A DNA stretch of 63,793 nucleotides, filler included, from Hausera hauseri (Eukaryota), in the NCBI GenBank assembly GCA_046269625.1. It is 11 parts of 11 records of this genome, joined end to end, with 100 filler letters (N's around TTAATTAATTAA, not from the genome) between each part and the next. Parts side by side here need not be neighbours in the genome. Positions count along the whole stretch, not along the records: positions 41,534 to 54,794 come from JBJURY010877625.1; 10 more parts are not named here. One strand, 5' to 3'. The notes under the pieces were generated by a model. It was not told the DNA's origin. It saw nothing but the letters and a program-made list of their open reading frames with translations, and ran no database searches. Made by a program: the position numbers and the translations under genes. Position 1 is the stretch's first letter. Every line of letters starts with the position of its first letter. Of this stretch, positions 20,376-54,794 are shown one piece after another.

Positions 20376-20891
20376 ACTGGAGGTTATGAATATAACCAAT
20401 GTTCCCTGAGGGAAGGGAACGAGGTACAACACATGAGTATGGGGATTGCGCCCTCGCGAGACCAACCTGAAGAAGTTTCTTTCAACACGCCTGTCAAGGC
20501 CAATGAGATTGCTGCCCGCATCTACAGGAGGCTCCGCCCTCCTGTATAAAATATGCGGCGCAGTCTCATTTCCTCAATCTTTTTGCACTTCACCTCGCTT
20601 AACCTGATAACAGATCTCACGTAGCTGACTTAACTGTCCGACTGGAGGTGAGCTTGCTCCCTGCCCAGGGCGTCACTACAAGCTGAGATTCTGTCTCTCT
20701 GCTGGTTTAGCCTGCTAACCTGCAACGATTTTCTGCTCTCTGGTCTTCTGGCTCGTTTAGCTTGCTAACTTGCAGAAGCCACTCTCACCCCTGTTTAGCT
20801 TGCTAACGCGGGAAGGAATTTTAATAGCAGAACAACTCTTCGCCTGTTTAGCTTGCTAACTGGCAAAAACAACCACTCTTCCTGTATCCTA

Positions 20892-22487
20892 ATGGCGCCA
20901 GAGAAGAGCAAGAAAACTATCCGAGCCGCTAGCAAAGCTAGCAAAGCTGTTAGCACTGGTTCACGCGCGTGTCCAGGTGCTTGCGGTTTTTTCCTTTCGG
21001 AGAAGGATACCCATGACGCTTGTCCAGTGTGTCTCGGCATGTTGCATGCGAAAGCTGCACTTGCTAACCCGGAGTCGTGCCCGCACTGCAGCCGACTCCG
21101 TAAATCGACCCTAGAGAGGCGGGTGGGATTCCTCACTAAGTTGCTGGGAAATTCAGCAGCAGCCAGAGATTCGCTGCTGTCTGAAACTCTCGAACCAACC
21201 TCGGAATTGGAATCCGAGGGGATGGAGGACAGCGCCTCAGCGCTGCCTTGGGGCGACCAGATGGAGGAGCTCCTTCCCATGGAAGACTTGGGGGAGGATC
21301 TAGCCAGGTTCGGCATGCAGCCCATGCTTCATGCAGACGACGAGGTCTCTCTGACAGCCTCAGGTGGCCTCTCTGAAGATGAAACCGGCACTGGCGAGGA
21401 TGCTGAAGAGCTCTCCCAGGAGGCGGTGGAAGCACCTGTCGCAGCGGACGGATCCACCTCAGCCCTGTTCGAGCTGTGTCGCAGAGCGGCCGAGCGTCTC
21501 GACGTGCCGTGGCCCGCCCCACCACCGCGACAACGCCAAACAAGACTCGCAGGAAACTATTTTCTTCCGAAGATGCAGACTTCGGTGAAACATAAACTGC
21601 CCATTTTTCCGGATTTTTTGACGGAACTGACACGATCCTGGGCATCCCCCAAGGCGCCGCTGTCATTACCTTTTGCCCAGTTTCTGGACCTGGAGGATAT
21701 GGAACCAGCGGGTCTGACACACATCCCTCCCATGGATGAGACACTGGCGGCCCACTTAGCTCCCAAGCCAAATGCTTCTTCAAGTAAGCCCACTCTTCCC
21801 AGCAAGCAGTGTCGGTTCTCTGCCGCACAGCTAGAGAAAGTTTACCGCGCCCAGGGTCTCTGTGCGCGCGCGCTGAGCACCGCCTCTATGCTGCAGGCCT
21901 ACCAGGCGGAGCAGCTACAGGAGCTGCATGAAGCACTGCAGAACGAGGAGAGTTCCGCCAGACTGCTGGATGAGGCGCGCAGGACGGCTGATTTTATCCT
22001 CCGGTTGTCCAGCACAGCAGCTGTCGCGCTGGGAAAAAGCATGTCTGAAGCGGTGATCGCCCAGCGGCACTTGTGGCTCACCCTCACAGAGTTGCCGGAG
22101 GGCCAGCGCTCAGATTTTCTCCATCAGCCTGTTGAAGCTACAGGATTGTTTGGACAAGCCCTGGAGAAGATACAGACCCGCTGTGATCAAAGGAGAAAAC
22201 AGGAAGAAGCCCTGCGACTGGGGATGCCCAGACGGCAATTTTCTCAGTCCAGAGCCCCAAGTGAGCACAGGAACGCACCTCCGCGTCAGCGCTCCCTGTC
22301 CCGACGCCCCGCGCAAAAAAGACCTTCGCCGGAGTCCGAGCCACATCAGCCGCTTCCCTCTGCGGTTCAGCGTGGGCGTTCACAACCCGGACAACCTGCG
22401 TGGTCCAAGCACCGCTTTGTCCCCAGACAAGCAGGGGCGCCAAAGCCTTCATCGGCGGTGAAGGAGAAAAAGCAGCAGTCGGCCTAA
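20892..22487 (+). CDS. DIRS ORF1 (Gag-like, N-terminal Cys/His finger, LAP2alpha-like region)
   Basis: CPGACG..DTHDACPVCLG..H...CPHC; RHLWLTL; GLFG. First ATG at 20892. Confidence 0.9.
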   Translation: MAPEKSKKTIRAASKASKAVSTGSRACPGACGFFLSEKDTHDACPVCLGMLHAKAALANPESCPHCSRLRKSTLERRVGFLTKLLGNSAAARDSLLSETLEPTSELESEGMEDSASALPWGDQMEELLPMEDLGEDLARFGMQPMLHADDEVSLTASGGLSEDETGTGEDAEELSQEAVEAPVAADGSTSALFELCRRAAERLDVPWPAPPPRQRQTRLAGNYFLPKMQTSVKHKLPIFPDFLTELTRSWASPKAPLSLPFAQFLDLEDMEPAGLTHIPPMDETLAAHLAPKPNASSSKPTLPSKQCRFSAAQLEKVYRAQGLCARALSTASMLQAYQAEQLQELHEALQNEESSARLLDEARRTADFILRLSSTAAVALGKSMSEAVIAQRHLWLTLTELPEGQRSDFLHQPVEATGLFGQALEKIQTRCDQRRKQEEALRLGMPRRQFSQSRAPSEHRNAPPRQRSLSRRPAQKRPSPESEPHQPLPSAVQRGRSQPGQPAWSKHRFVPRQAGAPKPSSAVKEKKQQSA

Positions 22488-24760
22488 CTCCGCAACTGAA
22501 AGACTTAAAATTAGAGCATCTCCACCCACTGGGAAAAAGGAGAGCTCCTCAGATACAGTCTGCCTCGGAGTCAAAAAGACCCCGATTAAGCAAACTGACG
22601 TGCACAAGCAAAGCACACACATACACACACATTCCCCATTCACTTGTTGTGGGTGCAATAAGAGGAAAGTTCCGTCCTCAAGCACCAAAAATCATAAAGA
22701 CAGAATGTTGTGTTCCATCTGCTTTATCACTGAATTCAGAAATAAAGGGAGAGTTTTGTCCCCATTTCACAAAACTGCTAAAAATAAAGCAGAAAGCACT
22801 CCGGGAAACGGAGTCAAACTTTCTGCTCCGCTCAAAACTGTGCCCAGCAGAGGGCGCAACAAACCCACAACTAAACATGCCGTTGACGCTAAGTTCCAAA
22901 GCCGAAGCGTGGCGCGCATGCGCACCATCGCAGTGGATCATGGGAACTGTAGTTCACGGTTACAGATTGCAATTCACCAGGCCTCCTCCGTCATTCAGAG
23001 GAGCCACACTGTCAAAAATACGACCGGACCTCGCTCCTGTCCTCAGGGAAGAGATTCGCACACTTCTAACAAAGGGTGCGATAAAATTAGTCCCTCCACA
23101 GGACTCCAACAGCGGTTTTTACAGCCGCTATTTTGTGATCCCGAAAAAAGATGGGGGTCTCCGTCCTATATTGGACTTGAGACAATTAAACAAAAGGCTG
23201 AGGACATTCAAATTCAGAATGTTAACTCTGCGCCACGTAATGCAGTCAGTAAGACAAGGGGACTGGTTCACATCAGTGGATCTGAAAGATGCATATTTTC
23301 ACATTTCAATCCAACCCAAACACAGAAAATATCTACGCTTTGCCTTCGAAAACAATGCGTACGAATATCAAGTTCTGCCATTCGGTTTGTCTCTGGCACC
23401 TCGAGTATTCACGAAGTGCCTCGAGGCAGCACTGGCACCAATCAGGGCCCAGGGCATCAGAACTCTGGACTACCTGGACGATTTATTAATTCTGGCAGAC
23501 TCTCCCCAACAGGCCAGTGCGCATACAGCTCTGCTGATGTCGCATCTGCAGTCTCTGGGGTTTGTAATAAACACGGAAAAGAGCCAGCTGATCCCCAGTC
23601 AGAAAATCTGTTATCTGGGATTGGAACTGGACTCTGTGAAAAATCTCGCGAGATTATCTCAAAAGAGGATAACAGCGTTCAATCAGTGCCTAACACTATT
23701 TCAGCGCGATCGGTTACAGACTATCCGAAACTGCCAGCGCCTGCTAGGTTTTATGGCTTCTATGATTCCAGCAGTCCCACTCGGTCTGCTGATGATGAGG
23801 AAGTTTCAGCGGTAGGTTCATTTCAGACAGAGACACCCGCCGCAACAAAATCAGGTGGTGCGGATCTCATCCTCCTGCCTACGCGCGCTCCTCCCTTGGA
23901 GAAACACAGCGCATATCAGCAAAGGGGTTCCCCTAGGTCGAGTGTTGTCACGCGTCCTGGTGACCACAGACGCGTCAAAGTTCGGCTGGGGTGGGATCTG
24001 CAGACACAAGCACATCAGCGGTGTGTGGTCTCAGAGACAGAGCCAACTTCATATAAATCAGTTGGAAATGATGGCGGTTTTTCTCTCGCTAAAACATTTC
24101 GACATGATGGGCCTGCTAGCTCACCGACATGTGTTAGTGCGCAGCGACAACAGCTGTGTAGTGGCTCATATAAACAAACAGGGAGGCACGCGGTCATTAC
24201 CGCTCCTTCATCTGACCCACAACTTGTTACAATGGTGCAGCACGCGGCTACTGTCGCTCAGAGCGACACACGTCCCGGGAGCACTGAACCACGGAGCAGA
24301 TGCGCTTTCCAGAGGTCTCCCACGGGCAACAGAATGGCGCCTTCATCCGGAAGTGGTGCAGCAGATTTGGGATCGCTTCGGCAAGGCCGACGTAGATCTG
24401 TTCGCCTCCAAGGAAAACGCGCACTGTCCTATGTTTTTCTCCATACGGGACGTGAACGCACCACTCGGTTTAGACGCACTTGGGCACAGGTGGCCGCGAA
24501 TGCACCTTTACGCATTTCCCCCAGTGGCACTGCTTCAAACTACACTGGAACGCGTGCGCAGAGAGGGGCTCACACTAATCTTAGTGGCTCCCCACTGGCC
24601 CCAGAAGACCTGGTTTGCAGAAATCATCTCACAGCTGGACGGAGAGCCATTACGCCTCCCTGTGCGCAAAGATCTCCTGACCCAGGCACACGGTCAGATT
24701 TGGCACCCCCGTCCACAGATCTGGAACCTGTGGGCTTGGCCCCTGAGAGGGAAAAACTGA
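22400..24760 (+). pseudogene. DIRS ORF2: RT, RNase H and methyltransferase-like domain, one in-frame TAG at 23813-23815
   Basis: LRPILDLR, DLKDAYFH, YLDDLL; TDAS..GWG, HINQLE, SDNS; VDLFAS, LYAFPP. Confidence 0.93.
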
Positions 24761-25782
24761 TTGCTACAGGTCTCCCCTGTAATGTGGTGAACACGATTCA
24801 GTGTGCGAGAGCTACCTCGACTCAGAACAGTTACACGATTAAATGGCGTGTTTTTGAAACTTGGTGTGGGGAAAGAAACATTGTTCCGTTTCTCAGCTCC
24901 ATAGTAGAGGTTCTCACATTTTTACAGGACTTGCTGGAAAAGGGCCGTTCCTTTTCCACAATAAAAGTCTATTTGTCAGCCATCTCTGCCTGTCATGCGG
25001 GATGGAACGGGAAAACGCCCGGTTCTCATCCTCTGGCGGTACGATTTATGAAAGGGGTTTTACGTAAGAAACCACCACGCAGGACATTGGCACCACAGTG
25101 GGACCTGTCACTGGTGTTGGATGCACTGTGTGACGCTCCGTTTGAACCCCTGGAGTCAGTCAATATGGATGTTTTGTCTTATAAAACAGCATTTTTGCTG
25201 GCGCTATGCTCAGCCAAACGCGTAAGCGACATGCATGCGCTTTCTGTTCACCCTTTGTGTACCCAATTTGCGCATGATGGTTCCAGAGTGACTCTACGCC
25301 CAAACCCAGCGTTTGTCCCTAAAGTGCCATCTCTGTCTTATAAGAGCCTTTCTTTTGAAATTTCGGCTTTTCCGCCACCGTCTGTGACATCCGCAGAGCA
25401 GAGGCGCATGCACGCGCTCTGCCCGATGCGGGCACTGCGTATTTATATTAATCGAACACAGAGCTGGCGAAAGACTGATCAGCTGTTTGTGTGTTTTGCT
25501 AAGCCGGTAACGGGAAACGCTCTGTCTAAACAACGCCTCTCTCACTGGGTGGTAGAGGCGATTTCCCGAGCGTATGTCTCCAAAGGTAAACAAGCACCCT
25601 GCAGTGTGCATGCCCACTCGACCAGAGGCATGGCTACCTCATGGGCTTTATTTAAGGGAATCCCAGTAGCAGACATTTGCGCTGCTGCTAACTGGGCGTC
25701 TCCCAATACATTCATAAAATTTTACAGTTTGGATGTTACTGCCAGTGACGTCACCCAGGCTGTTCTTTCAGCACAAGTGTAA
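22600..25782 (+). CDS. DIRS ORF3: long N-terminal overlap plus tyrosine recombinase
   Basis: AKRVSD (R), HSTRG (HxxR), AANWAS, FIKFY (Y). 1060 codons open. Confidence 0.92.
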   Translation: MHKQSTHIHTHSPFTCCGCNKRKVPSSSTKNHKDRMLCSICFITEFRNKGRVLSPFHKTAKNKAESTPGNGVKLSAPLKTVPSRGRNKPTTKHAVDAKFQSRSVARMRTIAVDHGNCSSRLQIAIHQASSVIQRSHTVKNTTGPRSCPQGRDSHTSNKGCDKISPSTGLQQRFLQPLFCDPEKRWGSPSYIGLETIKQKAEDIQIQNVNSAPRNAVSKTRGLVHISGSERCIFSHFNPTQTQKISTLCLRKQCVRISSSAIRFVSGTSSIHEVPRGSTGTNQGPGHQNSGLPGRFINSGRLSPTGQCAYSSADVASAVSGVCNKHGKEPADPQSENLLSGIGTGLCEKSREIISKEDNSVQSVPNTISARSVTDYPKLPAPARFYGFYDSSSPTRSADDEEVSAVGSFQTETPAATKSGGADLILLPTRAPPLEKHSAYQQRGSPRSSVVTRPGDHRRVKVRLGWDLQTQAHQRCVVSETEPTSYKSVGNDGGFSLAKTFRHDGPASSPTCVSAQRQQLCSGSYKQTGRHAVITAPSSDPQLVTMVQHAATVAQSDTRPGSTEPRSRCAFQRSPTGNRMAPSSGSGAADLGSLRQGRRRSVRLQGKRALSYVFLHTGRERTTRFRRTWAQVAANAPLRISPSGTASNYTGTRAQRGAHTNLSGSPLAPEDLVCRNHLTAGRRAITPPCAQRSPDPGTRSDLAPPSTDLEPVGLAPEREKLIATGLPCNVVNTIQCARATSTQNSYTIKWRVFETWCGERNIVPFLSSIVEVLTFLQDLLEKGRSFSTIKVYLSAISACHAGWNGKTPGSHPLAVRFMKGVLRKKPPRRTLAPQWDLSLVLDALCDAPFEPLESVNMDVLSYKTAFLLALCSAKRVSDMHALSVHPLCTQFAHDGSRVTLRPNPAFVPKVPSLSYKSLSFEISAFPPPSVTSAEQRRMHALCPMRALRIYINRTQSWRKTDQLFVCFAKPVTGNALSKQRLSHWVVEAISRAYVSKGKQAPCSVHAHSTRGMATSWALFKGIPVADICAAANWASPNTFIKFYSLDVTASDVTQAVLSAQV

Positions 25783-41533: not shown

Positions 41534-41608
<75 letters not shown>
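41534..41608 (+). repeat. (CA)n microsatellite
   Basis: Pure CA run at the contig start. Confidence 0.97.
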
Positions 41609-41609
<1 letters not shown>

Positions 41610-42566
41610 AACTGCTACAGCAATCACTTCCACACACATACCCAGGCACACGCGCACACACCCTGAGACCACGTTCATACACACACAGAGAAAAAGGGAA
41701 AAAAATCTACCCTTCGACCCCCACCCACGCTGACACAGCGAGAGAGGGAATCACTCCCCTCCTTTTACCCTTTATCTTCCACACACCACCATGCAGAGGC
41801 ACGCACCCACACAAACCCAGACACACACAGACTCCAGCAGCCCCCGTCCGTCCTTCTTGCACTACCCCGACTGTCCGGAGGTCCCACACGCCTCACAGAA
41901 CAACAAACACGGCACAACAAAAGCCAAAGTAACACACCCTAAACTATGAAGGTCCCAGACCATTCAGAATTTGGTTAAAAATTAACTACGTCCCGGACGC
42001 GTGCATATTCCCCCTCAGTAAACTAAAAATTCCGTCAATTTCGGGTGCCACAACCCTCCCGCGGGATGACGTTGCCCCGAGCTGGGTTCCCGGAACCCTT
42101 ACACCCCACTCGTCAGTGAGGTGGTTTCTCGCCACTGCGCAGCAAGGGAAATGCACTTTCTTCAGCGAGTTCCAAACTCCTGGCATACGACCCCAGGTCG
42201 AGTACTACCTAATAAATCACAAAAACACTGCGCATACACGAAGCAAAGCCGTGAGAAACACACACACGCACACGCCCGGAGAGCGCTGTGCGCAGCCGAT
42301 CTGAATAGACGCAACCCCCATGTCAGAAGTACCACTAATCAGCGCAATCTAGCTTAAACAAACCATCCTCATTTCCGGAGAAGGCTGCCCGCGCACCCGC
42401 AGAGGACAAAATAAAATAAAATTTGGTTTACCGGCCGAAAAGCTGAGTGATTCGGACCTCCCAAGGCCAGCAGGCATCAGCTTACCTCAAAAACGAAGGG
42501 CCCTCTCCTCTGCGCGCGCACCGCAACCCACTCGAATCCAAATGCCACAGCAGGCGCGCTCAGCCG

Positions 42567-42583
42567 CACGTCCGGGGTCACCA
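42567..42583 (-). promoter_or_regulatory. Primer-binding site, tRNA-Trp-like (ERV-B)
   Basis: TGGTGACCCCGGACGTG versus the Trp PBS TGGTGACCCCGACGTG; 2 nt after the LTR end. Confidence 0.82.
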
Positions 42584-42585
42584 TT

Positions 42586-43623
42586 TGAAGTGGACAGTGC
42601 ACTTTGTGTTCAAAACGGCGGAGACGTCACCTTATATAAAAAGATTTATTTGACAGAGGGTTACAAATATTCAGATAACATACGAACCAGATTAATATAT
42701 GCATATATGGAGCATGAAGACCCGACCTTAATATGGAGAAGTTCTGACCCGAATGCTCACCAGAACTTGTTGGTTATGGAGTTTTATCACTGCTTTTAGA
42801 AGCCTAGCTCCCTGATTGGTTAGAGGTTTAGGTTCGGAGCCTCTCTGCCCGTCAAGGCCGTTCCTAGCTACATTCCAGAGATAAAGTTTTATGACTCTAC
42901 TGAGCTAAGCTCTTTGTTCCAAGTTAGTGTATTATTCTGCCTTATTGGCCTAGAAAGAATACGTAGGTTAAGACTGTTATAATAATTAAGGTCTGTTAAT
43001 TATTATTATTTGCTATTTTATATTTATGTGTTGTTAATTGATAAATCCTGACTAATATAATTGTTTTTCAGTTCTGTTGGAGCTACCCTCCTCCAGTGCA
43101 GCTGTGAGCTTTGATAGACAACACACACATGAAGAGTTTTCCTTGAGGAACCAAGAATGTGATTCTGTGTTCCTAATCTATGGTTCAGTCTGATATTTAG
43201 TAACTTAACTTTATTCTCTGGTAGTTTACTGTTATATTAATATTTCTAATGTATTAGTGTGAAGATTAAAACTTGTGTGAGCTCATCTAAAATGCAGCCT
43301 GAAATTAAACAAGTTCAATGTTAATTATTATTAACATAAGGACCTGAGAGTTTTAATTTACCTGTATTGAAAGGAATACTCTTCTCGCAAGAGTAGTCAG
43401 TGTCTTACCTGTAGTATTGCTTGTCTGAATGGCTTGTAATTAAGTAAAATGTAAATTTATAAGAGTATATCTAGCTCCAGTGAGATTATAGATTACCATG
43501 CTAATTCATTGTAGTTCTATAGTCATAGTGAAACCCTTTTAAGAAAGACACGTACACACTTTATAACATGACATTTCAACGATGAATAGAAATATACAAG
43601 GAAATAAAATATGAAATCCTTCA
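42586..43623 (-). repeat. LTR of ERV-B (~1038 bp)
   Basis: TGAAG...CTTCA termini; PPT AAGAGAGGGA at 43625-43634; CCAAT near 42815 and AATAAA at 42644-42649 on the minus strand. Confidence 0.78.
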
Positions 43624-43776
43624 ATCCCTCTCTTGGTCTATCAAAAGATAGACCAACTACCTAAAGGAGGCTACAGATATTCTTGTCTCAGCCAATCGCA
43701 GGTGATCTCGGTCCGATGATGAGGAGTCCTCGCTGGCCCGCATCACAGGACACACAGCCCCGTCCCCACGACTGCA

Positions 43777-44490
43777 TCAGACCGAATCATACGAGAGACA
43801 GCAACCTTTGCACATGGTGCAACGCACCCCATCAAGACACAAAAAAAGAACCAAAACAGCCAGAGGAGGGGTAACAAGTTCAAGTGCAATCACAGCCTGA
43901 CTCCAAAACCCACCTGTAAACCACGACAACAACTCCAACGATGTTGCAGGAGGATCCTCTGCCTTAGCCGTTCGAACCCCTCTCAGCTGCGACATGGCCT
44001 CAGTACCACCCCAAACCAGGTTACAAGCACAACACACCTCCCCTCCAATAACCTCACTCTCGTTATACCTAGACAACGTTAATAGATACAAAACCATTCT
44101 ATTACATAAAACCACCACTCTCAGAGTGGACAATATGACCTAAACGCCCTCCAGCGCTATAAAAGTCGAATTAATAAACATATCGAAGCAGTAATCCTAA
44201 GTCTCAACCTGTAAAAGGGGTTTACCCATACCAGCCCAAAGAAAAGATGAAAGCATGACCTTTCCCCTGTCGTCCAGTGCTTAAAATTAGTAGGCACGTC
44301 CAAACCTAAATTGAATCATGCGGCCTAATGCCAACAGCCCCCGTCGCCTGAGTTAACGAGCCATTACCTAAAAATACCAGAAACTATTTGTCTGTGACTG
44401 CCACAGGTGCACAGAAACCTGACCAATTAGAGGAAAGAGTTAAAAGCACTGCATACCCACACAACCATAAATAATAACCAGAAAACTCCA
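43777..44490 (-). pseudogene. env: Degenerate gamma-type env (SU end and TM subunit) of ERV-B
   Basis: SNWSGFCAPV, HWTTGE, FINST, LSTLRVVVLCNRMVLYLLT, IGGEVCC, LLSWFTGGFW; collinear with the intact env at 52063-53829. Confidence 0.8.
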
Positions 44491-47400
44491 TCACCAAAAC
44501 CAGAAACCCCATTATCACTACTACCCTCTCTCGGTCAACATCCTATTTGATATGAGAACCATGTTTGGTATCACACCACCCTGAAAATGAGAATCAATTA
44601 TGTGTAAACTTGAATTCAACCGTACATGCAGGAAAAACGTCAGCCCCACATAACCTGAAAGAATAATATCACAGAACAAATGAACAATACACCCACACAC
44701 TGTAAATTCTCCGACTTGATCCAGGAATCAATTCCTATAAACCTGCAAAGCAAAATTAATCCAACATGCATGCATAGTAAAAATCTAACCCAGTAAAAGT
44801 TCATCTAATCCCACTCATGTCCAAACAGCCCCCTGACCCCTTTAAAAGCTCTGATTGTTCCTTCAGAATGACTCAAAGAAAAAGACAAACACTCATATTA
44901 AACATTTTTCCCCAGCAGGTCTTCGGTTCTTCTGTTCTTGAGCTTGCGGTGGGAGCCCTTGTTCGTCTACAAGGGTCCTGGTGCTCAACGGTATACGGCC
45001 CGCGGAGTTATCTTCGTGTAAAAAGTCTCTTAACCTATATCAGTCTGTTTAAACGTTCTAATTGACGTGTGTGTAATGGATCACAAACTATATCAGTGTG
45101 ACGCGTTTTCTTTGCTTCACGGTCAGGGCTGGGAATCTTCTTCCTTCCCCGTTCCACCTGACTGACCGACTGTAGGCAGAGCGGAGACTCCTTTCTCCAA
45201 TTTTGCTACTGCCTTTTTTCAACAAGGGGCAAAGAGTGAGCTCCCACGAAGGTCTATCACCCTCTTTCAGGTGAGATGGGGAGCTTCACACCTGTCATTC
45301 CAGCAGATCTGCCTCCACCTGACCCAGCGAGTGGATGAACTCCTCAGCAGGTGCCCACTGGCTGGTGTGATGTTCTCTCACTCCACCACCAGGTGGGGTC
45401 CTTTCCCTCTTTTGAGCAGGACCCAGTCTGGTGTGTGGTCCCTAGTCAAGTCTCCCCATTCAGATGTTTTCCCCCTGTTGAGAAAAGGCTGGACACCAAA
45501 GCTTGCGAATTGTTAAACACACTGTCTGGCCTATTTTATAGTTTTATCTATGGGATCCCTGGCCCCTGTTGGGGCCTGGAAAAGCCTAACTGTACTTCCT
45601 TCATATTAAAAATTCTTAAGTCTAGCACAACCTGCTGGTCCTCATTTCCACTGGTAGGGTGTTAATGGTCATACTAAAAATTCAGTTAAATTGCTATTCC
45701 TACATTCAGCTATAAACCTGAAATTGAAATGATGTACATACTGGACTTCTCCAGAAATACCTGTGTACTCCCGTTCCCTCTCCACCATTTCAAGCATTTG
45801 CCTCCAGTGAATCTACCTAAAATAAGCAAAGTTAACCATAACACAACAACAATACACAATACATCATAATGAGTAATTACCTATACTGGTCCCTTCTTCG
45901 AGGCTGTGGAAGGAACGTCATTAACGCATGCGCAGAAAACCTTGAAGTGCCCTATAAACTTAAAAGCCTTAGACAACTGACATATAACTCTTCCCTCCAG
46001 GTACCTGTTCCAGAGAGAACACAAGGAAAAATCCTACTCCTGAGCCTGTTGCTCAGCCGTGAAACATGTGGTTAAAAATACTTTGTTCATGAAACCTTTT
46101 AATATCCAAATTAACCTATTTTATGTCAAGTCCAGTCAAGTCAGTCAAGTGTGTTTAAAATACAGAACCACCACTTTTTCTAATTAACCTTTGATCACAT
46201 CCACTTCAGGAGGCTGTTTCAGATCCTGCTGTCTATTTTAGGGTTATTCGTTTGGGGCGTCCCCCTTTTTGACCGGTGAAGTTCCTGGAATCTGGAAACA
46301 AGAGAAGATAAATACTTATGTTAACCTATACAAGAGCAATATCGATTCTAGGCTTCTGATTTCTTTCACTTTTCAAATGTCGATGTGGTTTTCCCAACTG
46401 TTCCTTGTTGTTCTCTTAAATATACATAACTTACGAAGTCATTTTAGATATATCTATTATTATTTAATTTAATTAATGCTCTACACCTTTTATGAACTGT
46501 TTGTTTTCTTAAATATAACATGCTCTAAACCATGTGTGAACTGTTTCCTGCTAAGAACACCCTTCAACCTCCCCCCTTATTGAAACAGTGTCCTGCTTCA
46601 AAACCCTACATCCATCTGGCTATAAAATACTAACACACGGTTTGAGAAATAGTTTCAGAAATATAAAAATAATCTGGTGTAGTCGTACCATACCAACTAC
46701 AGTTAATCAATCTAGGTGTCACTCCTATAGCTAACTATAACCCAAATTCTTATATAAGTTCTCTAAGGAGTTAACCATTAAATAAATCTCATCCTTTGTT
46801 GCAAACCAGACCTTCCACATGAGCTCGTTGAAGGCAAAGACCATCATGTATCTTTAATTTATCAGACCTTACCCAACTCCATCTAAATCAGGCCTCAGGT
46901 ACAGGTTTCACCTGTGTCCAACCTGTAAAAATGAAAAGTTAAAAACAATCTATCACTAAGGAGTGGGGAGCGTCATTATAGGTTCTGATGTACTAAAACA
47001 ATTTTCATCCCAGAGCCCACGGAACAGGGGCAATCAGTCCAGCACCCCCACAGTGGAACTCCTGTGTCGTGATATGGCACCTGTCCTAAAGTGAGCCTAT
47101 GTGTGCGTTCATTATCAAGGCCAACCGTAGTTTTGATCAAGACCCATGGTTATCGGATGTCTGACATAGACCAAATGTGGAGTAGCTCCTCAGCCAGACT
47201 GTAGTAGTTGTTATTGACATTGGACCGATGGATCCTCAGCTTGTTTCTCTGTAAGTGATCTCCTTTGGTCTGGAGAACAGTTTAGCTTTGTGCAGTAGTT
47301 CATGGCTCAGCATACAGTGAGACTTGACTTGATGTCTCCACTGTTGACAAATCCAGGACCCCCATCTGGACAGTTCAGTTTGTTTCTTGACTGACAGATC

Positions 47401-48420
47401 TTTGCTTTGATGCATATCGCAAAGTCATTGTGCTTGGCTGACAAGTTCTTTGTTGTTGTGCCAGTGGTTTCTTTGAAAAGTCACATCGGTCGGTCAGTTT
47501 CCCAGATCCAGCTTTCAGCGCCCACCTGAACACATCTGGTTTCAGAGCGACAACCAACAACCTTAAGGCACTTGATGCAAAACTCAGATGGATGCTGTAT
47601 ATATCTGAACTCTCTGTATGTGTTTGTGGGCCTAGCTAGACTCACCTCCCCTGTTCCATAGCTCTGCCTTCACAGGTTGCTGAGAAGAAAAAATAATACA
47701 ATCCAATTATTAAAAGTCAGACTCAAAGTTAATTATCTGTTAACAAATTCTATCCTGGGACCACAGTGTTTACCTCCAACCGTCATCCTGCATCCTGGCT
47801 TTGCACAACGGATTTTTCATTATTATTATTATTATTATTACTATTATTTTTAAAGCTCAATTACATAAGAGTGAAAACCTTCATTTAACACTGCAAAATC
47901 CAATTCTCTACACCCACTACATAAAATATTATTTTAAACAATGTCCTCAATGTTTTAAAAGGATCAGGCAGCATGATTAAATGAACCACTGCAAATTCAT
48001 CCAGATGATAGCCATGTTTGTTCCCTGCATTCTAAACAAAATTTTGTAATTCAATTCAATTAAGACTATGTATGCAAGTCCAAGACATCACAAAGACCAA
48101 TTAGCACTGCACAATCAACGTCTACATGCACCTTTGTTCACAAAGCACAACTTCATTGCTAGAATTGTTATTTTCACCTAAATCTCAAAGTTCAGGTAGC
48201 TCTTATAAGGAAACAGTTCCTAAACTCTAAACAACATTTTCAATACATGATGAACTCCTTTAAACTGCCTAATTTAACCCAAGCGTTACAAGTTCTCTTA
48301 AAAACATTAATTAAATTTAAAGACTAGCTTCATATTCAAGTTTAAGAAGAAAAATTTGGCTAATTTGTTTACTACGTGTCATCCAGAAATGCTTTAACTT
48401 AATTTGACCTGTTTATTTTT

Positions 48421-48561
48421 TTTCATTCAGCTTTCCTCTTCTCAGGGGTCGCCACAAGGTGTCATCCTTCTCCACCTCACTCTGTCCTCTGAATCCTCTG
48501 TCCTCACTCCAACTACCTCCATGTCCTCTCTAACTTCATCCATCACTTCCTCTTTGGCCTT
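48421..48561 (-). mobile_element. RTE-clade LINE 3' fragment
   Basis: Translates RPKRK..VREDMEVVGVRTEDSEDRVRWRRMTPCGDP*. Confidence 0.8.
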
Positions 48562-49975
48562 TGTATAAACTCACTCCTGAAACTTTCCTCCATCCACTCC
48601 ATCTTGCCTGGACTCTCGTTTTCACCTCTTCACCACACCTCCTGTCCACTAGGAGTCAGTAACGACTTCCTGTTGTATGTTGACTTCCTGTGGTATTCCA
48701 CACGCAGCTTTAGCCAGACACGGACAAGAGCTACACGTTGGAACAAAGCACACATCTAACTGCGACTACATGAACAAATATCCCTTCAACAGACCAATCG
48801 ATCGTTTCCGAACAGTGCTGAAGGCTTTATCGATTTTTATAAACCTTAAAACAAACCAGCAGATGTAAGATATTTAACCTAGCATGTGCTACGTTCGTTA
48901 GCTTCGTAGCTTGTTAGCTTAGCTTACAACCTTAACTCCTAGCTCGTGAAACGTTTAAAATCATGCATTAATAAACTGAAAATCCGGCGAAACAACCGAG
49001 ACAGATACCAGCGTTGCACGCAGCAACAAATCAGCGTTTTTACCGTGAAACAGGACTCGCTCGAACCGGGTTCGAGGCCTTCAGAACCAGGCCGAGACCA
49101 ACAGAACCGGGCCGCAGCACAGACCAACATCAGAAGAACGTAATTAAATTTGACCCATCATATGAATGCGGTCTGTTATTTAATCAAATTTAAAAACTGA
49201 CTCCATCTTCAAGTTTTAGATAAAAATTTGGCTAATTTTATGTCTATTGTCCTGGACAGTGGACCCCAATTACTTGAAGTCCTGCACCTCCAATGTTTTT
49301 TGTACTTTTACTGACTTATTTCTGCTAATTTCTGATACTATTTAACTGTTTTATGCCAATACCAACTAATTCCCTCTGTCTTTTAAATCAATCCAACTTG
49401 TGTCGCCTACTTCAGCACAACAAAGCTCTACCCACTTCCTTCCAGTGATTTAAAATTATTTCTGCTTGTTTGTTGTTTTCTAATTTTAAGCTCCCTTATT
49501 GATTCTTTATTTAGTAATTAGTTGTTTTAAGGTAATTAACACGTTCGCTCATAATTCCCAGGTTATCAATTCTTCATTAATTTCCTGAATTTGTTTGTTT
49601 TGACCTTCCACCTTGTCCCAAATTAATTAATTAATTAAAACTAACTCCCTCTCTTAGATTATCCTGTAGACTGTCGTCCACAGGAGTCATCTGTTTCTCA
49701 TTTATGAGCTCCCTATCTGTCGACGTTCTGCTCATCCACGCACACACGAACACGTCAAAAAAATAAAAACTAACCCTGCACACACACACACACAGACCAC
49801 GTCACACAGCACTCATACACACGCGCAGACACACGCAAACAACCTGAGACCACCTGCAATCGGGCCGCGCGGTACATACTTCGGTTCGGAACCGTTTTTA
49901 GCTCCCATTTTTCTGGTTTTTCACTTTTTCTACACGTTTAAAAAATCACAATTTTACGTAAAATAAAACAAAACC

Positions 49976-50482
49976 CTCAGTTCTCTTTTATCAAGACGAA
50001 CTTGAACTCAGCCGCTCCTTTTGAGCGAGCCTACCTCGGCGCGTCGTGCACATGAACGCGCTTACAACTCAGCTGTCTCGTGGACGAGCCTACACTCAGC
50101 TTGTCATTATAACAAACCTACAACTCAGGTTTCCTGTTGAAACCCTACCTCGGCTTCTACTCTAATTTTCAAAGCTTACAATTCTCGGCATCCCTATTGG
50201 AAGCTTACCTCGGTCCGTACTGTAAATTTCAGGACTTACAATTTTCCTCAGTTCCCTATTGGAACCTACCTCGGCTCTTACTGTAAATTCAGAGCTTACA
50301 ATCCTCGGCTTCCCTATTGGAAGCTTACCTCGGCTCTTACTGTAAATTCAGAGCTTACAAAAACTCAGTTCCCTATTGGAACCTACCCTCGGCTCTTACT
50401 GTAAATTTCAGAGCTTACAATAACTCAGTTTTCCTGTTGAAAACCTACACTCGGCTCCGACTCTAAATGTCAGAGCTTACAA
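49976..50482 (-). repeat. Tandem array of 17 short stem-loops in the ERV-A 5' leader
   Basis: Each unit reads CTC-R-G[stem/loop/stem]C-Y-TAC on the + strand. The right part has ~60-bp two-hairpin periodicity. Confidence 0.88.
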
Positions 50483-50707
50483 TTTTTGTTTTATAAAACG
50501 AAAATGAATTTCCTTTACCTGACAATCGGGTGTTTTCTGTTTCCTGGTTCGGGTCCGTGTGGAGTCGGTCCCCGGCCGGTGAACAGGACGCCCTCCCATC
50601 TCCTGAAGTGCGGAGGATGGAGGAGGAAAAAAAACAAAAACTGTTTTCTCCTGGTGATCAGCCAACGCCCCGGTTCTCCGTCGTCGGGACGAACTCTCAA
50701 CGGAAAA

Positions 50708-50721
50708 TGTTCGTGACGCCA
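50708..50721 (-). promoter_or_regulatory. Primer-binding site, tRNA-Ser(CGA)-like (ERV-A)
   Basis: TGGCGTCACGAACA, complementary to the vertebrate tRNA-Ser(CGA) 3' end ..TGTTCGTGACGCCA (from memory). Confidence 0.8.
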
Positions 50722-50725
50722 ATTT

Positions 50726-51394
50726 TGGAAGAAGTTTTTAGCTTAAAAATTATTAAGTTTAACTTCTAAGAAGGAAATCAGAAAACATCCGTTAAATACA
50801 ATGTGTCAGGTTTATTTTCCTTTGCAAAGGGAGAGGCCCGTTCCTGCAATGTACTTCAGCAGCTCTGAAAACAGTCAGGAAGAGATCTCTGACAAAACAT
50901 GACCGTGGATACATTTTATACTGTTCATTACACACGAACATTTGCACACACGAACATCTGATGAACTCATAAAACATTGGCACAGAAACAGTGTTTTTCT
51001 CATAAGATGTCTTTGAAGTTGAAAACAGTTTTAACTTGTCAGCATTATTTCATTATAATTGGAACATTTTGACATTTCAATGACTATTCCTTTATCTCAG
51101 CAACAGCGGTACCAGGAGGTTCCTGGTTCTGTTTTGCAGGTGTTTTCAGTCCTGTGAGCATGCAAGCAAGCTGTGCTTGGTACGACATGATACAGACTGG
51201 ACCTTGAACTTTTAACGAGCAGTACATGTAAAAAGGAAAAACATCAGAGTGCAGATTTGTTTTCTTCCAAGTGCAGTATATAAGTTTTGTGTTTGTAATA
51301 CAACAAATATAAAATAATGCAGTATAACAAATATGAAATAAACTTCAATCATTAAACTTTTAATAATACAGCAGATATAAAATACACTTCCACA
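50726..51394 (-). repeat. LTR of ERV-A (~669 bp)
   Basis: TGTGGAAG...CTTCCA termini; PPT GAAAGGGGGAA at 51396-51406; TATAAAA near 50914-50920, then AATAAA at 50811-50816. Confidence 0.82.
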
Positions 51395-52062
51395 ATTCCC
51401 CCTTTCGTTTCCTAAGAAACGACAATAAAAAAAACATTGAGCAAAATGCATACTAAAAATGTACTTTCCAAGAGTGCTTATACGAATGATACGGAAAACT
51501 CCCGGGGCAGATGGTAACAAGAGGGAGAGAAAATCGTATCATCACTCCAGGCCCCGCTGGCAGCGACCGGTGGCTCGCATGAAGCACAACAAGAAAAGAA
51601 AGATCTGTACAATAGAAACACAGACTCTTGAAGGGGTGAAATCATGTCCATGGCTTCATATTAAATATGGTTTGGCCAAAAACAATCATAAGCTTCAGAT
51701 GGAATTTTAGCTAAGTGCTGTTTTTGTGGGTTAAAGACCCTTAAATGTAGCAAGCTAAATGTGTAGGAAAACACATAAAAATAACATAAAAATAATGGAA
51801 ATAATGGCAATATAAAGTTTTAGTTTAAAAAGTCTGTGGCATTCCAAACTGGTGAGTCCTCGTGGACATTACGAAATACAGCAATATTTACAAACAATGT
51901 CAGGGCAGCGAAAAGGTCATCTCGGTTTAGGAAGGTTAGTGACTGACAGTTTATGGCATTGGTGCCTGCGAGATGTATATCAAGAACAAGGATATGATCA
52001 GTGTGGTTGTAATCAATTGTGATGGTGGTTTGACGTCGTACTTTTAAGGTGATTTTCATAGT

Positions 52063-53829
52063 TTATTTTAATATAAAGGTAGTGGTTTCCGTGTGCGTCA
52101 GGGCCTTGGGTTGGTATTCAGGTGGGTCTGGGTAATCAGTGGAAGGCGAACGAGTGAGGACAGTACCCGTAAAGGTAGATGGTAACATCTTCAAGAACAT
52201 GTGCTTAAGACAAGGCACAATGCATAAGAAGAACAAGCAAAATAGAATGAGGCAAAAAAGAAGAGGGGCGCAGACTTTTAGCAGCAATTGCCACCAAGAG
52301 CCAGAAGTAAGCCAGGTCCAAAAGTCAAAAGATCGAGCTCCATTAGTGCCACTTTCTACGTAATCTTTCAGTTGTGTTAGGTCACTCAGGGCATCATGAA
52401 TAGCACCTCCGTCAGAAGTTTCGTCCGGGATGAATGTACAGCACGCTTCTCCTATTATTTTACATACGCCTCCTTGTGACGCAGTTAAAAGGTCTAGGAC
52501 AATTCTATTCTGGATTACCATGTCTCGGATTGCGGACAATTCTGCTGTTGTTCCATTAGCCAATAATTGAGTTGCATTGATCAAACGGAGAAGGGCATAT
52601 CTGTTGATTTCTACATGAGCTCTGACTTCACCTATGCCTACCATAGGGAAAAGTCCTTGGAAAAACTTTTCTCCTCCATTCCAGATCTTATATTCCCAAG
52701 GTACGCCAGTACTAGTGGTTAAGCCGCCCCATCTGGTTACCTTGGGCATGGCTGAACGGCGTAGCCTACTAGGGGTGGGATGGGATTTTTTCAGAACGAA
52801 CATAGGGCTTGTCAATTGGACGAGTGCGCAGAGTCCTCCCCAATTGGGAGGAAGAGCGGTGTATGCTTTGTGGCCGCAGAGAAAATACCAATCGGTCAAT
52901 ACTCTGGAGCCTTTATCTCCTGGGACCAAAACGCTACAGAGGGTCCTGTCTTGTCTACCTCTAGTGTTTTTCCGTATGTGAAAAGTCCTTTGTGTCAGTA
53001 GGCTTTCACAATTGTCCAGATCGTATCCGTCACAGGAAGTACCTGCAACGCGATTACCGTCTGTGAAGTTTACCCCTTCTTTGCAGAACATGCAATACAA
53101 GAAGGTTCTCTCATTTCCGATTCTAGGGGGTGGCAAATCGCAAAAAGAATAAATTGTTTTACATAATTTCCATGGCAGGGTGCCCACAAGGGTGGTACCG
53201 TTGTTAAAAACACAATTTCCTAGCGTGTCAGATTTTAAAGTAGCTAGTGTGATTATGTCTGGCAAGACGAGAGGCATTTGAGGCAAGGGCATTAAATCGG
53301 AGGTGGCAGTGCAGTCTTTATTAAAAACTTGTCCTATCATTATCAAAGCTTGTTGTGCAAACAAGGTGGTGTTGCGAAGTAGAATATGAGATAGTGGCCG
53401 TGAATAATTCCGGTCATTCCAATTCTGCAGGCCTGGGTGGGTGCTTAAGCCATATAGGCAGGTTTGTTGATTAGGAGAAACTGGTTGGGGACGGAGTCCT
53501 GCATTGAGTGTTGAGTATGGCATGTGTGCACAAACATAACAGTTGGTTGTGTTCCCCTCGTGAGCTGTTTGGTTCATTAATTGCCACCACAAGTTTGTAC
53601 TGTAATCGTGTGGATGTATGTACCCTAAATGCATTTTATGAACAAGGTCGCGTCGATGGCGGTGGAATGTGTTGGTCGTCGGGGCGTGTGTGACATTGAG
53701 GTCTACATTAATGACAATATTTGAGGGGTGTAAGTACCATATCATCAAAGTCAATAGTATTGCGACGAGAGTGAACATAAAGCATACAATAGAGGATTGT
53801 AGCCATCTGGGTGTGCGTGTGTTGGGCAT
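52063..53829 (-). CDS. env: Intact gamma-type retroviral envelope glycoprotein (fish ERV)
   Basis: N-terminal hydrophobic leader, CYVC (CxxC), RLRR furin site, ISD IQNRIVLDLLTASQGGVC, CX6CC (CKIIGEACC), TM helix. Confidence 0.96.
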   Translation of the reverse strand: MPNTRTPRWLQSSIVCFMFTLVAILLTLMIWYLHPSNIVINVDLNVTHAPTTNTFHRHRRDLVHKMHLGYIHPHDYSTNLWWQLMNQTAHEGNTTNCYVCAHMPYSTLNAGLRPQPVSPNQQTCLYGLSTHPGLQNWNDRNYSRPLSHILLRNTTLFAQQALIMIGQVFNKDCTATSDLMPLPQMPLVLPDIITLATLKSDTLGNCVFNNGTTLVGTLPWKLCKTIYSFCDLPPPRIGNERTFLYCMFCKEGVNFTDGNRVAGTSCDGYDLDNCESLLTQRTFHIRKNTRGRQDRTLCSVLVPGDKGSRVLTDWYFLCGHKAYTALPPNWGGLCALVQLTSPMFVLKKSHPTPSRLRRSAMPKVTRWGGLTTSTGVPWEYKIWNGGEKFFQGLFPMVGIGEVRAHVEINRYALLRLINATQLLANGTTAELSAIRDMVIQNRIVLDLLTASQGGVCKIIGEACCTFIPDETSDGGAIHDALSDLTQLKDYVESGTNGARSFDFWTWLTSGSWWQLLLKVCAPLLFCLILFCLFFLCIVPCLKHMFLKMLPSTFTGTVLTRSPSTDYPDPPEYQPKALTHTETTTFILK

Positions 53830-54113
53830 GTTTGCTGTATGTCAGTGCTAATTTTTACACCCTGCCTGCCTAGTCAGTTGTAGGATCTAGGTATCCTGCC
53901 GCCACCACTGTGAGCCGGAGCTCGGTCAGTGGGTGGTGAATGCTGCGTGGATTCCTCGTGGGTGTCAAGCCGTTCAGAGTCCGATACTTGTTTCCCCCTT
54001 TGATGGCAACCTAGCACTGAGCTCTGGCGTGTCTTTTCCTCTGGGTCGAGTTTGCTTGTTCTGGAATTGTTGTTAGTCCAGCGCAGAGTTGGTGTCTTGG
54101 AACACGGTCAACC

Positions 54114-54794
54114 TTAGTCCTCCAATGCCGTGTCCTTGTCCAGTGATGGCGAACTCCCTTCCAGCGATGGGGAGCTTTCTGGTGGTTTGACTCCTTTGAA
54201 GAGTTTGCAATGGCTGGCGTGGACCCAAGTGGCTCTTTCAGCCACCTTGACAGCCGTGTGTGTGGTCAGCAACACCTGGAACGGTCCAGTCCACCTTGGA
54301 GAGTTCCACCTTTTTCTCCTGAAACATTTAATCATGACAAAATCTCCAGGAAAAATGCAATGTAACAGTTTTTGAGCAGGCGCAGGAAGTCCTCCTTGGA
54401 CTTGGTTCCTGATCTCTGTTAATTGTTTGGTTAGTGCAATACAATATTTCATCATGTTACTGTCACAGTGTGTTAGAGTGTTAGTCGGATTAGCTGTGGG
54501 ACCAATTCCCAGGTTGGGTGGTGCCGCAAAGAGAATTTCGTAAGGGCTAAGGTTAAACTTAGCTCTACGACGCATGCGCATATACAAAACAGCAATAGGT
54601 AAACATGTAACCCAGTTCTGGCCTGTTTCTTCACAGATTTTTGAAAGTTTGTTTTTAAAAGTGCCATTTTCTCTTTCCACTGCACCAGCACTTTGTGGGT
54701 GATAGGCACAGTGTTTTGAGAGGTCCAGATTCAAAGTTTCAGAACATTCTGTAATGATCATGTTTGCAAAATGAGGTCCATTGTCACTAGAGAT
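54114..54794 (-). CDS. pol: Retroviral integrase, C-terminal part (5'-partial)
   Basis: ISSDNGPHF, YHPQSAGAVERENG, LSPYEILF, PRWTGPFQVLLTTHTAVKV, WVHASHCK. Confidence 0.95.
   Translation of the reverse strand: MSSDNGPHFANMIITECSETLNLDLSKHCAYHPQSAGAVERENGTFKNKLSKICEETGQNWVTCLPIAVLYMRMRRRAKFNLSPYEILFAAPPNLGIGPTANPTNTLTHCDSNMMKYCIALTKQLTEIRNQVQGGLPAPAQKLLHCIFPGDFVMIKCFRRKRWNSPRWTGPFQVLLTTHTAVKVAERATWVHASHCKLFKGVKPPESSPSLEGSSPSLDKDTALED

Follow-up and report, generated by a model that had tools for sequence, protein, structure and literature searches.

A tandem array of predicted covarying hairpins with a constant closing motif in the leader of a teleost-type endogenous retrovirus

What is known about RNA signals in the leaders of fish retroviruses? 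To our knowledge, the cis-acting RNA signals of these viruses are almost unstudied. ZFERV (AF503912) has a repeat region located in its leader, and the salmon virus SSSV (DQ174103) has a leader repeat as well. In the passages that mention it, the ZFERV region is described as 9 direct repeats spread over 517 bp (Shen and Steiner 2004, cited in PMC3382231) and is marked "Rep.", between the LTRs and the genes (PMC9016899). For retroviral packaging, one account places the signal (Psi) between the splice donor and gag, considers that clustered nucleocapsid (NC) sites may promote Gag–Gag contacts and so seed Gag assembly, and names DIS-1, DIS-2, SL-C, and SL-D as the core encapsidation signal of Moloney MLV (PMC3247676). 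Our literature search found nothing on structured hairpin arrays in fish endogenous retrovirus (ERV) leaders; the primary ZFERV and SSSV papers may already describe stem-loops.

How does the present locus compare with these systems? The window (the whole 63,793-nucleotide stretch of Hausera hauseri DNA that was analyzed) contains an array of short hairpins in the leader of what is, judged by its coding and terminal sequences, a teleost epsilon-like ERV. It is like ZFERV in this affiliation, in length (507 bp, or ~8.5 dimers of ~60 nt, vs. 517 bp), and in period (~60 vs. ~57), and the agreement with the ZFERV repeat region itself is one of size only. That region, which we compared by description alone, is presented in the cited passages as direct repeats, with no hairpins, covariation, or closing motif, and ZFERV is not named among the Env and integrase protein matches listed. 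Because a direct-repeat region of similar size is known in ZFERV, the array may be a structured form of a known element; if the ZFERV region is built alike, the direct repeats described in 2004 would gain a testable function. The array would share with MLV, so far as the cited account goes, stem-loops between splice donor and gag, palindromes, and clustered protein-binding sites. MLV, however, has 3–4 hairpins that differ from one another and carry GACG loops and UCUG sites, whereas here two hairpin types make up the 16 copies and the base motif is fixed; such MLV-type marks are scarce in this leader (1 GACG and 4 UCUG). A leader in which a single RNA module is repeated 16 times would depart clearly from the 3–4 unlike hairpins of MLV/HIV. 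A search of Rfam 15 for an already described element, a check proposed in the preliminary description of this DNA, gave no match within the array up to an E value of 10; 5 chance-level matches (E 2–6) lay elsewhere.

Analysis of the locus was confined to the contig at 41534–54794, with the parts beyond the N linkers left aside. On the minus strand, the order runs from an integrase end through env, a 79-codon ORF, a 3' untranslated part, a polypurine tract, an LTR, and a PBS-like site to the leader with the array:

54114..54794, minus strand: integrase C-terminal part of pol, truncated at the contig end (MLVIN_C, E 7e-14)
52063..53841, minus strand: env, a 592-aa open frame (TLV_coat, E 7e-12)
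51820..52059, minus strand: 79-codon ORF, a possible accessory gene, beginning 4 nt past the env stop
51395..51405, minus strand: polypurine tract
50726..51394, minus strand: LTR of ~670 nt with a short terminal inverted repeat, a TATA-like box at 50920, and AATAAA at 50816
50704..50721, minus strand: PBS-like sequence with a TGG start, 4 nt past the LTR end
50513..50521, minus strand: first 5' splice-site-like 9-mer of the leader, CAG-GUAAAG (the hyphen marks the splice position), with 7 of 9 consensus positions
50488..50499, either strand: perfect palindrome of 12 nt, AT-rich, bordering the array on its 5' side
49976..50482, minus strand: hairpin array of 16 complete GUA-R-G..C-Y-GAG units and a 17th hairpin
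49951..49964, either strand: perfect palindrome of 14 nt, AT-rich, bordering the array on its 3' side

The fish ERV leader proposed at the outset is borne out by the LTR, the PBS, the polypurine tract, a TLV_coat Env, and an MLVIN_C integrase with fish relatives. The relatives of Env are teleost ERV Env proteins, the best reaching 58% identity across 82% of the query length, and the 21 named matches among the 23 found are all from fish. The integrase falls among teleost ERV sequences (tree support 93/96), in a clade that includes loci L007 and L020. The PBS-like sequence may resemble the 3' end of a vertebrate tRNA-Ser; no tRNA was found in the window for comparison with it. The 9-mer at 50513..50521 is, on its sequence, likely the major splice donor, and the array begins 38 nt past it, spanning 224–728 nt from the end of the PBS, as first estimated (~230–730 nt).

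The LTR is present in one copy only in the contig, and tblastn with 5 related Gag and 5 Pol queries gave no match for gag or pol downstream of the leader (41534–49976). The order env–LTR–PBS–leader reflects either proviruses in tandem with a common LTR, of which the second lacks gag, or assembly through collapsed LTRs. Several kilobases past the leader (49900–43000, minus strand) are without retroviral coding matches, and at 48500–49900 many divergent contigs match in sequencing runs, so that a gag-less element or other repeats may come next. Farther along the contig (~42900–41534, minus strand) lies a second, unrelated LTR-like end with AATAAA and a TGG-start PBS-like site near 42582; it has a donor-like GAG-GUAAG ~95 nt past that site and no GUA/GAG array. 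Of the words sampled from 49600–51400, each of 18 runs from 18 organisms contained 17–71%, and in the 4 runs examined in detail all 30 bins were covered, so the element belongs to a family common to related hosts. None of the 18 is listed as an RNA run, a result that has no bearing on expression.

How is the array built? Read in viral sense (minus strand), 16 units tile 50480–50007 with linkers of 0–7 nt, each consisting of GUA-R-G, a stem, a loop, the returning stem, and C-Y-GAG. They are of two types:

50035..50480, minus strand: long-type (A) units, 27–31 nt, mostly 30–31, mostly with a 7-nt A-rich loop
50450-50480, 50388-50418, 50329-50358, 50270-50299, minus strand: A units
50209-50239, 50149-50179, 50095-50121 (diverged), 50035-50065, minus strand: A units
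50007..50448, minus strand: short-type (B) units, 23–28 nt, with a C-G closed pentaloop AANAG in 7 of 8
50424-50448, 50364-50386, 50304-50328, 50247-50269, minus strand: B units
50184-50208, 50124-50148, 50068-50093, 50007-50034, minus strand: B units

The preliminary description counted 17 hairpins, and CTC-R-G indeed starts 17 times on the plus strand. Sixteen of these are complete units; the 17th hairpin (to 49976) keeps the GAG end but lacks GUA and has an A-U pair at the R/Y position. The unit pattern occurs 16 times on the minus strand of the contig, never on the plus strand, and nowhere in the remaining window. A and B units alternate, giving a dimer repeat of ~60 nt (TRF: period 60, 6.0 copies, 77% matches, 50123–50483), and 14 of the 16 units are distinct, with two pairs identical. 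All the stem pairs quoted earlier are present in the sequence. The coupling reported between the flanking purine and pyrimidine also held: the position is A.C in 9 of the 16 complete units and G.U in the other 7, never Watson–Crick, and the pair that follows it is G-C in every unit. A.C and G.U wobbles are isosteric. The GUA/GAG combination is presumably that of the cross-strand trinucleotides in the half-motif of bacterial 5S rRNA loop E, next to the helix. Non-Watson–Crick pairs are common to bacterial loop E and the sarcin/ricin motif (PMC2731888). Here, unlike in loop E, in which three stacked non-Watson–Crick pairs lie between two helices, GUA/GAG sits at the open base of a hairpin, without a second closing helix, and leads into an A.C or G.U wobble.

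Is the pairing maintained by selection, or merely copied? The dimer repeat and the identical unit pairs mean that the units are not independent. Since they are duplicates, we counted changes along trees joining real units, using the 9 of 16 that are distinct and gapless; the test thereby omits B2 and B4 (one pair shorter), A3 and A4 (a one-base gap), and A7, B7, and B8 (diverged). Changes in B units were counted in register with a script, one gap having been misplaced in their MAFFT alignment. On the shortest spanning tree, all 8 changes in the 5' arm were matched by a change of the partner base, against a null mean of 3.0 (P ~7e-5 to 1e-4). All 8 coincident changes retained a standard pair, as did 10 of 10 when the inner A columns were added. 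Over all 2000 trees, P never exceeded 0.002 in the outer stem; including the poorly paired inner columns of the long units raised this limit to 0.015, and leaving out the invariant G-C column as well raised it to 0.067. Median P for the three column choices ranged from 2e-5 to 5e-4. In the A-type alignment, 6 of 8 pairs vary on both sides, a value reached in none of 500 shuffles and compared with 1–2 in slid controls, a control that ignores relatedness.

The closing motif behaves in the opposite way to the stems. It changed at 0 of 56 positions vs. 33 of 129 in the interior (Fisher p 3e-6), a contrast possibly inflated because units were delimited by the motif itself, although they nonetheless tile without gaps. 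It is constant even where the unit interior differs at 11 of 21 positions. Because relatedness-aware covariation is combined with a fixed, non-complementary closing motif, the earlier proposal of a selected, multimerized RNA element, rather than a neutral minisatellite, is supported, and we consider it quite probable that selection has acted on the array as an RNA structure, whatever its kind.

Thermodynamic folding was less distinctive. Taken singly, the hairpins are only weakly stable (−3.4 to −12.5 kcal/mol), with 7 of 16 at p ≤ 0.05 vs. shuffles, and in the folded leader the pairing probability of A2–A6 is 0.00–0.35 under an energy model that ignores non-canonical pairs. The whole-array fold gave z scores of −2.68 for the sense and −3.05 for the antisense strand, the two strands being alike. 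Counts of wobbles in register (4 G.U vs. 0 A.C) and in anchored folds (5 vs. 2) both leaned toward the sense strand without significance.

What might such an array do? We favor, tentatively and from its position, a multivalent Gag-binding (packaging, Psi) element. Packaging is favored because the array follows the donor-like site, in the zone of retroviral packaging signals, and the covarying stem-loops known from Psi are found here, among the units of one array only. Viral-sense RNA would fold into the unit hairpins, and on unspliced genomic RNA a single Gag/nucleocapsid molecule would dock at each of them. Because the stems vary as long as they stay paired, while the base motif and loops remain, the array looks like a scaffold presenting a repeated protein-binding surface: the stems would serve as scaffold only, and the read-out would be the A-rich loops together with the closing motif, envisaged as three non-canonical GUA/GAG pairs stacked on the A.C or G.U wobble and then the G-C pair. 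Splicing from the putative donor at 50518 would remove the array from spliced env RNA and so restrict the signal to genomic RNA. The flanking 12- and 14-nt palindromes may start dimerization; at least two perfect palindromes arose in 3 of 400 shuffles, in a post hoc comparison of palindromes that are AT-rich. The array itself probably grew in whole dimers, by template slippage or unequal recombination.

The same covariation, and the location within the presumed env intron, would also suit a multimerized nuclear-export or accessory-protein response element for unspliced RNA (CTE-/RRE-like). Its candidate reader would be a host factor or a small viral protein, e.g., the product of the 79-codon ORF, which lies directly behind env, and purine-rich helix ends with non-canonical pairs typically act as surfaces for protein binding. 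The array, however, lacks an Rfam match to any export family, and we regard this function as unlikely. A more skeptical account is that the array is a neutral minisatellite in which, without selection, template switching at quasi-palindromes kept the stems complementary while the DNA was replicated or the RNA reverse transcribed. Clear tandem duplication, weak strand preference, palindromes close by, and related leaders that have no array all fit such an origin. Palindrome correction, however, would tend to produce complementary ends, yet GUA/GAG and the A.C/G.U position are non-Watson–Crick in 16 of 16 units, and neutral drift sits poorly with a closing motif that stays constant over such divergent interiors; we consider a neutral repeat quite unlikely.

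The preliminary description also entertained U1 binding, pointing to junctions that read GAG-GTAAG (hyphens here mark unit junctions). A decoy 5' splice-site array of this kind would bind U1 snRNP and damp splicing or premature polyadenylation; the negative regulator of splicing of RSV is a comparable decoy-type element. Every complete unit does start with GUARG, and 5 of the 15 junctions read GAG-GUARG and one AGG-GUAGG, but GAG-GUAAG is exact at just 2 of the 15, with the remaining 3 of the 5 being GAG-GUAGG instead. All 7 B-to-A junctions carry linkers of 2–7 nt ending in UU, which abolish the exon-side match, and GAG is tied to its own hairpin rather than to the next GUA, so the U1 idea is weakened. 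The +4/+5 bases, moreover, sit at the stem base, and U1 pairing leaves stem covariation and the R/Y coupling unexplained. With the exon-side consensus removed by U-rich linkers at most junctions, this reading is poorly supported and, in our judgment, improbable. The least probable of the readings that we weighed is a translation element for gag (IRES/shunt) or a DNA-level protein-binding array (enhancer/insulator). The long structured leader, with 5 AUGs on its sense strand, would suit the former, and tandem leader repeats are known as DNA-binding arrays in other LTR elements, e.g., the enhancers/insulators in insect errantivirus leaders. No gag start, however, was found in the contig, and DNA-binding sites need no paired compensatory changes. 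A pri-miRNA cluster was ruled out, since stems of 4–9 bp are far too short.

How widespread is the array among related elements? It did not recur in the related ERVs compared: the motif is absent from 16 of 16 related loci, of which only three (L007, L009, and L015) include the PBS-to-gag leader. Since L007 belongs to the same integrase clade yet has no array, the clade at large does not need one. Loci L020 (8436 nt) and L021 are fish ERV sequences within bacterial genome bins titled Brevinema and Paraclostridium, most likely as host DNA contamination; the unit pattern is absent from both bins. No relative turned up when viral contigs were scanned at the protein level, and 5 matches to the dimer pattern in such contigs were set aside as isolated occurrences in phage-like coding DNA, with no arrays.

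Variation among runs offered another view of the array, read from the best-supported 40 of 636 substitutions. One stem substitution is among these best 40 of 636 listed from other runs: at 50013, in 4 of 4 examined runs, the U.G wobble of the last complete unit becomes U-A, so that pairing is kept. The joints listed within the array include one that steps back by 181 nt (1 run) and one that skips 70 nt (2 runs), with positions 50468/50288 and 50418/50489. These suggest gain or loss of copies by about whole dimers.

A broader possibility, which we consider rather doubtful, is that a fish retrovirus lineage built its genome-recognition signal from a multiplied GUA/GAG loop E-like module. In such a lineage, loop E-like GUA/GAG on an interchangeable A.C/G.U wobble would be the protein-binding unit, copy number would adjust how well unspliced RNA is packaged or exported, and the ZFERV repeats would be explained. 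Whatever its function, the array supplies its own covariation data. The repeating unit, its constant motif, and the positions free to vary can all be read from one locus, and the array can therefore be probed directly.

Two other regions of the window drew our attention. On another contig (35105–37438, minus strand), an open frame of 777 aa has a RING finger close to the C-terminus. Overlapping open frames of 562 and 1106 aa occupy 20799–25782 (plus strand) with no Pfam match; a weak reverse-transcriptase match within them (~22980–23800) points to a possibly DIRS-like or other retroelement.
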